Origin: a virus | Taxonomy: Duplodnaviria > Heunggongvirae > Uroviricota > Caudoviricetes | Reading direction: 5' to 3' (one strand) | Virus record (IMG/VR): IMGVR_UViG_2563366903_000003 | Location: 1 to 4,263 of that record | Length of the DNA: 4,263 nucleotides | Shown here: positions 2,245 through 2,288 of the stretch, piece after piece | Layout of the letters: every line of letters starts with the position of its first letter | Position numbering within the stretch: the stretch's first letter is position 1 | Made by a program: the position numbers and the translations under genes | Notes under the pieces: generated by a model | Told to the model about the DNA's origin: nothing | The model's database searches: none | The model's input: only the letters and a program-made list of their open reading frames with translations

Positions 2245-2253
2245 AACCTGTTA

Positions 2254-2273
2254 CGGGAGGCGCACACCTCCCG
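2254..2273 (-). promoter_or_regulatory. GC-rich stem-loop (7-bp stem CGGGAGG/CCUCCCG, 6-nt loop) just downstream of the capsid gene stop; possible transcript stabiliser or attenuator
   Basis: Perfect inverted repeat 2254..2260 / 2267..2273. It sits 15 nt after the capsid TGA (2291..2289) and directly after an AGGAGG (2280..2275). No U-tract follows on either strand, so it is not a canonical intrinsic terminator. Confidence 0.45.
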
Positions 2274-2288
2274 TCCTCCTTATCAGAC

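Follow-up and report, generated by a model that had tools for sequence, protein, structure and literature searches.

The window analysed here, by which we mean the whole 4263-nt stretch of DNA, is the head-gene module of a long-tailed lambdoid E. coli prophage of the Stx type. Among 5426 complete E. coli genomes, 1256 contain a match at 90-99% identity (1261 records), and the window also matches Stx1a-, Stx2c- and Stx2a-converting phages, among them 2851 and 1717. In an annotated relative (L001) the minus strand carries, in order, an HNH endonuclease, TerS, TerL, the major capsid protein, a hypothetical 73-aa protein, the portal protein, a head-tail connector and the tail genes, with this head-gene block lying downstream of the lysis cassette. 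The features of the window are collected in Table 1. The capsid reading frame (4226..2289) contains the Pfam domains Peptidase_S78 and Phage_capsid and belongs to phrog_617 (major head protein, E 4.5e-261), and its counterpart in L001 is annotated as phage major capsid protein. The spacer under study therefore lies between the capsid gene and the small gene rather than between capsid and portal: the AUG at 2244, which the initial annotation had taken for the portal start, opens the 73-aa frame ending at 2023, and the portal gene starts at 2077. The capsid stop codon is 14 nt from the start of the hairpin and 44 nt upstream of the small-gene AUG. Ribosomes ending the capsid gene at that distance could re-initiate without a functional Shine-Dalgarno (SD) sequence, which is a point against a split ribosome-binding site at this junction.

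Table 1. Features of the window around the capsid-to-small-gene junction
Feature	Positions	Strand	Remarks
Prohead protease-major capsid fusion gene, 645 aa	2289..4226	-	UGA stop at 2291..2289; from the ORF list
SD sequence AAGGAGG, core AGGAGG at 2280..2275	2275..2281	-	unpaired in the predicted fold, directly 5' of the hairpin
Hairpin	2253..2274	-	5' arm ACGGGAGGU (2274..2266), loop GUGC (2265..2262), 3' arm GCCUCCCGU (2261..2253); 9 bp
8-nt tail AACAGGUU between hairpin and AUG	2245..2252	-	no U-tract; AGG 2 nt from the AUG
Small conserved gene, 73 aa, phrog_829	2023..2244	-	AUG at 2244..2242; in-frame UAA 9 nt upstream
Portal gene, 454 aa	713..2077	-	Pfam Phage_portal, E 7e-81; phrog_2271

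The small gene codes for a member of phrog_829, a family of unknown function (E 1.7e-38), and is annotated as a hypothetical protein in L001. Searches with its product gave no Pfam match, only PDB sequence hits of E > 0.1 and no PHROGs family other than phrog_829, and its AlphaFold model, with a mean pLDDT of 52.8, is unusable. Homologues with 25-60% identity and 10 invariant residues are found in Enterobacter, Citrobacter, Pantoea, Erwinia, Serratia and Rouxiella loci; the protein has 73 aa in the window and 51-58 aa in other genera (a range of 55-73 aa is also given for the family). Since a recognisable homologue, with the 10 invariant residues and a basic tail, is encoded in 18 Enterobacterales loci, the 73-aa frame is a real gene and its AUG is conserved. 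Two other uses of the junction were considered and rejected. The AGGAGG might have served GUG mini-ORFs or an alternative frame (a 79-aa ORF, 2267..2028, phrog_26251, opening at GUG 2267), and this GUG is missing from most E. coli spacers, while conservation across genera is limited to the 73-aa frame. Hairpin-stimulated read-through or frameshifting at the capsid stop meets a second in-frame UGA two codons on, and one locus (L032) is without the first stop, yet its downstream spacer and hairpin are unchanged.

On the minus-strand RNA the spacer reads UGA(2291..2289)-GUCUGAUA-AGGAGG(2280..2275)-A-CGGGAGG-UGUGCG-CCUCCCG-UAACAGGUU-AUG(2244..2242), exactly as the initial annotation had quoted it. 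Folding of this RNA, a check which that annotation had proposed, recovered the hairpin on the minus strand at 2274..2253. The stable hairpin it had described is thus there, but not at the 7 bp it had given, as ViennaRNA predicts 9 bp, with A2274-U2253 and U2266.G2261 added to the core. The hairpin alone is worth about -15.7 kcal/mol, and in a 126-nt context all nine stem pairs form with probabilities of 0.92-1.0. In the predicted ensemble of the same 126 nt, AGGAGG is 78-94% unpaired per nucleotide and the AUG is merely partly free (0.29-0.69 unpaired). For the 50-nt spacer the predicted energy is -17.4 kcal/mol, where shuffled versions average -11.6 (z = -2.3) and 5 of 200 do as well, and for a 76-nt piece z is -0.7; the fold of the window is by itself only moderately unusual and offers modest support. 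A 9-bp stem is too short for an RNase III site, and the Rfam covariance models gave no match up to E = 1 on either strand of the whole window.

The presence of AGGAGG, GGGAGG and CCUCCC in one spacer had led to the proposal that CCUCCC can pair with either SD-like hexamer, and one could imagine a switch in which it alternates between the two, or mimics the anti-SD of 16S rRNA, and so turns translation on and off. The energies argue strongly against this: the hairpin scores -15.7 kcal/mol and the AGGAGG:CCUCC alternative just -2.6, the 5' arm can be forced open only at a cost of 10.5 kcal/mol, and AGGAGG stays largely unpaired in the ensemble. Because the alternative pairing is more than 10 kcal/mol worse and thus energetically negligible, the hairpin is to be regarded as a fixed structure and not as a switch. 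Moreover, only E. coli has the SD-like and anti-SD-like arms, and relatives have GGCGGGG/CCCCGCC or GCGGGGA/UCCCCGC in their place, so the SD/anti-SD framing of the hairpin does not survive and we consider a switch extremely improbable. The paired GGGAGG, at 22 nt from the AUG, likewise lacks conservation in relatives. A riboregulator that sequesters the SD, or an RNA thermometer, does not fit the predicted ground state, in which the conserved SD is unpaired.

Searches with the small protein as the only query returned E. coli sequences alone, and an alignment of the capsid C-terminal domain was therefore used to search for loci. It yielded 80 loci from one-genome-per-species contigs, nearly all with capsid followed by portal, and scans of IMG/VR and of metagenomes with the small proteins of several genera brought the total to about 300 Enterobacterales phage or prophage loci that encode a homologue of the small ORF, with 96 distinct spacers between capsid stop and AUG. 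The hairpin is kept in 91 of these 96, and the 91 share one arrangement: GGAG(G), then -1 to 3 nt, then a GC-rich hairpin with a stem of 6-9 bp and a loop of 4-5 nt (usually GAAA), then 5-11 nt and the AUG. For three type I spacers the scored stem was 13 bp long, as G.U pairs extended it. The linear distance from SD to AUG is 23-32 nt in the relatives and 30 nt in the window; with the hairpin closed, the effective spacing is mostly 5-13 nt, with one outlier of 14 nt, and 8 nt in the window. The expectation that folding would bring AGGAGG to about 10 nt from the AUG at 2244 is thus borne out, at 8 nt by the predicted fold, and the geometry is preserved in three divergent sublineages (Table 2).

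Table 2. Sublineages of the spacer (hairpins in parentheses; counts of distinct spacers are from the first 76 spacers)
Type	Hosts	Arrangement	Distinct spacers	Linear SD-AUG distance (nt)	Effective spacing (nt)
III	E. coli	AAGGAGG-(ACGGGAGGC GUGC GCCUCCCGU)-AACAGGUU-AUG	11	30	8
II	Enterobacter, Klebsiella, Citrobacter-like	AAGGAG-(GGCGGGG GAAA CCCCGCC)-AUAUUGC-AUG	43	mostly 24	mostly 5-7 (outliers 9, 14)
I	Erwinia, Pantoea-like	UAAGGAGnn-(GCGGGGA GAAA UCCCCGC)-UUUUUUCU-AUG	20	28-31	9-13

Several details of these spacers bear on what is being held constant. While the SD stays within -1 to 3 nt of the stem, its distance from the capsid stop floats from -1 to 13 nt in the type I and type II relatives; judged by this spacing, the SD is anchored to the hairpin rather than to the stop codon. 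Two loci divide their single-stranded segments differently on the two sides of the hairpin (0 and 7 nt in L274, 2 and 5 nt in L275) and keep the sum at 7, and in a third (L338) the loop has gained an extra hairpin, while the stem base and the 7-nt tail are unchanged. The tail itself is almost always devoid of an SD: a GGAG, GAGG or AGGA motif occurs in none of the 43 type II tails and in one of the 20 type I tails (62 of 63 without), and the tails of E. coli variant B, AGUAACUG or AGUAACAG, have no AGG at all. The window tail AACAGGUU does contain an AGG, probably too close to the AUG to act; weak direct binding there is conceivable, and would count against a split site, as would SD-independent, S1-dependent initiation, which the AU-rich tails of type II could support. 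Among the E. coli-type spacers AGGAGG is invariant (11 of 11), the loop varies (GUGC, GAGA, GCGA, GUGU, GAGC) and so does the tail, and changes in the stem preserve pairing throughout, except for one G.A mismatch in L075. The SD is degenerate in four type I spacers, as GGAU in L249, L252 and L258 and as GGGG in L262. These four sites and the mismatch in L075 are further points against a split site. In a loose pattern search the full succession of SD, hairpin and AUG was found at 17 of 17 such junctions and at 9 places elsewhere in 974 kb. Taken together, the floating distance between stop and SD, the tails without an SD and the stems that vary and still pair argue for selection on the geometry.

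Comparison of homologous spacers, which the initial annotation had named as a way to check the stem, uncovered 20 distinct stem sequences, every one of which pairs, with changes that preserve the pairs. Within E. coli the closing pair varies between A-U, G-C and G-U, the sixth pair is A-U in E. coli compared to G-C elsewhere, and the stem GCGGGG/CCCCGC has become GUGGGG/CCCCAC in L249 and L252 by exchange of a C-G for a U-A pair. A covariance model (R1) matches the window at 2242..2286 on the minus strand (26.9 bits, E 5.6e-05) and finds the element once per related locus, and two covarying pairs in its alignment count GC 66, AU 5 and GU 2, and GC 62 and AU 10, respectively. In this alignment 85% of cells are paired, compared to 48-61% with slid partners, and the covariation score was reached by 0 of 500 shuffles, figures that are indicative only, as the sequences are related and the shuffle control cannot exclude phylogenetic inflation. 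The 85% is an underestimate, because the MAFFT alignment of the spacers set the type I hairpins 2 columns out of register, the covariance-model alignment inherited the shift, and the non-paired cells are mostly type I; for this reason the hairpin geometry of each individual sequence was also relied on. Double-sided compensatory changes are few, of about three kinds, and the 91 spacers, with sublineages that share descent, amount to perhaps 3-5 independent observations.

Even so, the comparison of relatives is decisive where the fold of the window was not, and on that evidence we take it as confirmed that the hairpin is real beyond chance. A functionless accident of a GC-rich spacer might have accounted for the z-score of the 76-nt fold, and for the shuffles that equalled the spacer itself. 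Such an accident would hardly produce a structure that is conserved with differing stem sequences across Enterobacterales and beyond, nor E. coli spacers in which loop and tail vary freely while the stem, L075 excepted, preserves its pairs, and we give this explanation next to no weight.

Looking further afield, 51 of 62 distant proteobacterial relatives have a strong GC-rich hairpin of 7-15 bp located 3-29 nt after the capsid stop. In those 51 the hairpin is 15-31 nt from the next start, an ordinary SD lies downstream of it in 46, and a U-tract (at least 5 U in 8 nt) follows it in 12. Serratia/Rouxiella-type loci, which do encode the homologue of the small protein, share this distant form and read GAGGGGC UUCG GCCCCUC CUUUUGGG, about 20 nt and then the AUG. 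A short distance from hairpin to AUG thus goes with an upstream SD, and a long tail with a downstream SD. The hairpin of the window corresponds in position to a terminator-like hairpin found after the capsid gene across the phage family, and the distribution indicates that a hairpin after the capsid gene is an old and general feature, whereas the upstream SD with a short, SD-less tail is derived in phages of Erwiniaceae and Enterobacteriaceae. Within the prophage of the window, the junctions from TerL to capsid, from gp17 to the major tail gene and from T to the tape-measure gene read hairpin, U7, SD (AGGAGG), start. Because these three junctions are built in that way, the one between capsid and small gene is a different design and not the default of the operon.

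Type I and some type II hairpins match the terminator consensus, with GCGGGGAGAAAUCCCCGC followed by UUUUUUCU, and this raises the possibility that the element reduces transcription of the small gene and the portal gene in the window phage by termination or attenuation; in type I relatives and in many distant ones, the hairpin found at this position has a U-tract and fits the consensus. In the window the GC-rich stem-loop is present and the U-rich tract 3' of it is absent, as the initial annotation had noticed: the stem is followed by AACAGGUUAUG, a scan with the terminator consensus calls no site there, and in 11 of 11 E. coli-type spacers the 8 nt after the stem contain at most 3 U. Because the U-tract is gone, we do not regard the hairpin of the E. 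coli lineage as an intrinsic terminator, and as the other junctions of the operon keep their U7 tracts, this loss is specific to the capsid junction. In addition, late transcription of lambdoid phages is Q-antiterminated and passes intrinsic terminators. We therefore view termination in the window phage as quite unlikely.

A different explanation is that the hairpin mainly serves the capsid transcript, as a barrier to 3'-to-5' exonucleases, as an RNA-processing boundary or as the relic of a terminator, keeping capsid mRNA above the portal message. On this view, translation of the small ORF would start through re-initiation or through weak direct binding, and it would be incidental where the SD lies relative to the hairpin. 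Capsid protein is required in far larger numbers than portal protein, the capsid gene of the window prophage has a hairpin on either side, and the distant relatives show a strong hairpin after the capsid stop whatever the position of the SD; the type I and type II matches to the terminator consensus point in the same direction. A stable hairpin does lie at the 3' end of the upstream cistron, at a position conserved in distant relatives, and the suggestion of the initial annotation that it is a 3' stabiliser for capsid mRNA is plausible and consistent with the hairpins after the capsid stop of those relatives. What a role in the capsid transcript leaves unexplained is the arrangement around the hairpin, namely a GGAG(G) fixed at -1 to 3 nt from the stem while the stop distance ranges from -1 to 13 nt, a constant SD-less tail of 5-11 nt, and the presence of a downstream SD with every long tail. 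As the main function of the element we consider it possible and somewhat doubtful; it is not an exclusive alternative either, as one hairpin could serve both jobs.

Based on the geometry and its conservation, we cautiously favor the interpretation that the element is a split (non-contiguous) ribosome-binding site for the small gene between capsid and portal, similar to those of T4 genes 38 and 25. The gap between SD and AUG in the window exceeds about 15 nt, a stable hairpin lies wholly inside it, the spacing with the hairpin closed falls in the range that works in T4, and the arrangement is conserved with pair-preserving variation. In such a site the late mRNA would present a strong SD, AAGGAGG, 30 nt upstream of the AUG and too far away for direct action; the 9-bp hairpin would take up 22 of the 30 nt and, once closed, leave 8 unpaired nt between SD and AUG; and a 30S subunit would bind the free SD with the AUG in its P site and the hairpin looped out, as in the two T4 genes. 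The data establish the anatomy of the element, its conservation and pair-preserving variation, the energetics of the fold and the identities of the genes; from these features we infer the use of the upstream SD by the ribosome, and likewise any effects on translation and on mRNA stability.

In relatives the stop codon of the small gene lies over the portal AUG, as UAAUG or UGAUG in type II, and a split site would for that reason also set the flow of ribosomes into the portal gene; initiation there probably feeds portal synthesis through translational coupling. This modifies the proposal that the hairpin tunes translation of the portal: a direct effect falls away, because the AUG at 2244 is not the portal's, and an indirect one by way of the stop/AUG overlap in relatives is probable. 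In E. coli the small-ORF stop has been lost, the ORF overlaps the first 54-55 nt or so of the portal gene, and the portal AUG is preceded at 8 nt by a GGAG of its own.

The split site and the capsid hairpin may also be two aspects of one element. The hairpin may protect the 3' end of the capsid mRNA as well, and in type I relatives it may terminate part of the transcripts, which is perhaps its ancestral role. A more elaborate version, which we put forward as a tentative possibility, is an element with two uses: a hairpin that acted as terminator or stabiliser of the capsid gene would have been recruited as the looped-out spacer in the ribosome-binding site of the gene that follows. In Erwinia/Pantoea-type relatives the hairpin and its U-tract would then stop some transcripts before the AUG and would be required for translating those that read through, setting the capsid-to-portal ratio at two levels. 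The Enterobacterales series could accordingly be read as a relocation of the SD across a terminator, from type 0 (hairpin, SD, AUG) by way of type I (SD, terminator, AUG) to types II and III (SD, hairpin without U-tract, AUG).

If the preferred reading as a split site is correct, members of a widespread family of such sites would be present in roughly one in four complete E. coli genomes and in many prophages of Enterobacterales, Stx1a and Stx2c phages among them. Annotation and calculators of ribosome-binding-site strength would score the small gene as lacking an SD. The stems, loops, tail lengths, U-tracts and loop insertion of the relatives would constitute a natural allelic series, usable to test how the ribosome accommodates a hairpin between SD and AUG. 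The site also suggests how phages set the ratio of capsid to portal expression within one operon.

The element resembles several known systems. Intrinsic terminators follow major capsid genes in other phages, such as T-phi after gene 10 of T7, and the resemblance lies in a GC-rich hairpin with a stable tetraloop placed right after the most needed structural gene, with a U-tract in type I and type 0 relatives; the copy in the window differs in that it is without a U-tract and separates the next gene's SD from its AUG. Intercistronic stem-loops are also known to stabilise the upstream segment of polycistronic mRNAs, as do the REP sequences of malE-malF and the hairpins of the puf operon. Like these, the hairpin studied here is stable and lies at the 3' end of a cistron whose product is needed in excess; unlike them, it is not a REP sequence, has no Rfam match, and its stabilising role is putative. 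Our searches of Rfam and of the literature, including that on post-capsid terminators, found no description of the element. To our knowledge, experiments have demonstrated split ribosome-binding sites for very few genes, namely T4 38 and 25 and E. coli thrS.

The closest parallel is provided by the split initiation regions of T4 (Gold 1988; Nivinskas et al. 1999; Malys and Nivinskas 2009, reviewed in PMC3014915), where a hairpin reduces the spacing between SD and AUG from 22 to 5 nt in gene 38 and from 27 to 11 nt in gene 25 (PMC3014915), and where mutations that destabilise the stem lower translation (PMC3014915; PMC7297116). As in these genes, the SD of the window is too distant (30 nt), the hairpin lies wholly between SD and AUG and gives a workable spacing when closed (8 nt), the site is at an intercistronic junction of a phage morphogenesis operon, and the arrangement is kept in close relatives and absent in distant ones. 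The two differ in that there is no homology of sequence or of genes, in that the hairpin of the window occupies a terminator-like position after the capsid gene where type I relatives keep a U-tract, and in that function was shown by mutagenesis in T4 and is deduced here. E. coli thrS and rpmE also have split ribosome-binding sites (Sacerdot et al. 1998; PMC7297116). In both, as proposed here, the ribosome-binding track accommodates a stable stem-loop, which positions the elements of initiation. Their hairpins, however, are operators to which the product of the gene itself binds in feedback control, whereas no regulator is suggested for the window, and that of rpmE precedes the SD. Most likely, then, the mechanism is one already known from phage T4 and not a new principle, and what is new would be a widespread natural family of such sites, with the added, putative twist that its hairpin matches the terminator of the upstream capsid gene in position and is terminator-like in sister lineages.

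The hairpin between the capsid gene and the 73-codon conserved small ORF (phrog_829) also contains a GUG, at which a 79-aa arginine-rich ORF opens in a frame other than that of the small ORF. Because this GUG is missing from most E. coli spacers, and because cross-genus conservation is confined to the 73-aa frame, phrog_26251, the family matched by the 79-aa ORF, was probably assembled from mis-called ORFs.

Features in the window beside the main hairpin
Feature	Window position	Strand	Details
Tandem repeat	1..551		162 bp x 3.4 copies, 93% matches
Arginine-rich ORF, 79 aa	2028..2267	minus	phrog_26251, E 1e-45
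Terminator-like hairpin, TerL-to-capsid junction	4263..4224	minus	ACCGCUGCGGCGGU, then UUUUUUUAUUUU

The small ORF itself is 18 codons longer in E. coli than in its homologues (window 2023..2077). Its ancestral stop codon, which overlapped the portal AUG as GGC UGA UG, reads GGC GAA UG in the window, and as a result of this UGA to GAA change the small ORF and the portal gene now overlap by 55 nt in different frames. At the other end of the portal gene, the stop overlaps as ATGA (713..716) the start of a minus-strand ORF that continues beyond the window edge, in which the tandem repeat encodes 54-aa repeats. The phrog_2271 portal profile has 859 positions, of which the window's portal spans only positions 1-451; in the annotated related prophage locus L001, the portal and the 54-aa-repeat ORF are annotated as a single 'frameshifted' portal.

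A natural variant of the capsid-to-small-ORF spacer, upstream of position 401 in a metagenome contig (Ga0058697_10000005), carries a small additional hairpin within the loop of the conserved hairpin; neither the GGCGGGG/CCCCGCC outer stem nor the tail of 7 nt is altered. In the IMG/VR locus L032 the capsid stop UGA has become CGA, which extends the capsid by two codons up to the next in-frame UGA, and the SD and hairpin are the same as before. In three type I spacers, those of the Erwinia/Pantoea type (L257, L264 and L266), G.U and A-U pairs can form between the U-tract and GGAGAG, which contains the SD, lengthening the terminator stem to 13 bp; such base-pairing would hide the SD in transcripts that read through.

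Upstream of the capsid gene, the terminator-like hairpin is followed by a canonical AGGAGG 5 nt before the capsid start, a GUG at 4226. In L001 the same hairpin-U7-SD-start order recurs ahead of the major tail gene and the tape-measure gene. L001 also holds an annotated ompC porin gene (554..1717) amid its tail genes; AT-rich spacers roughly 200 nt long lie on either side of it, and it seems to be a moron-like insertion.
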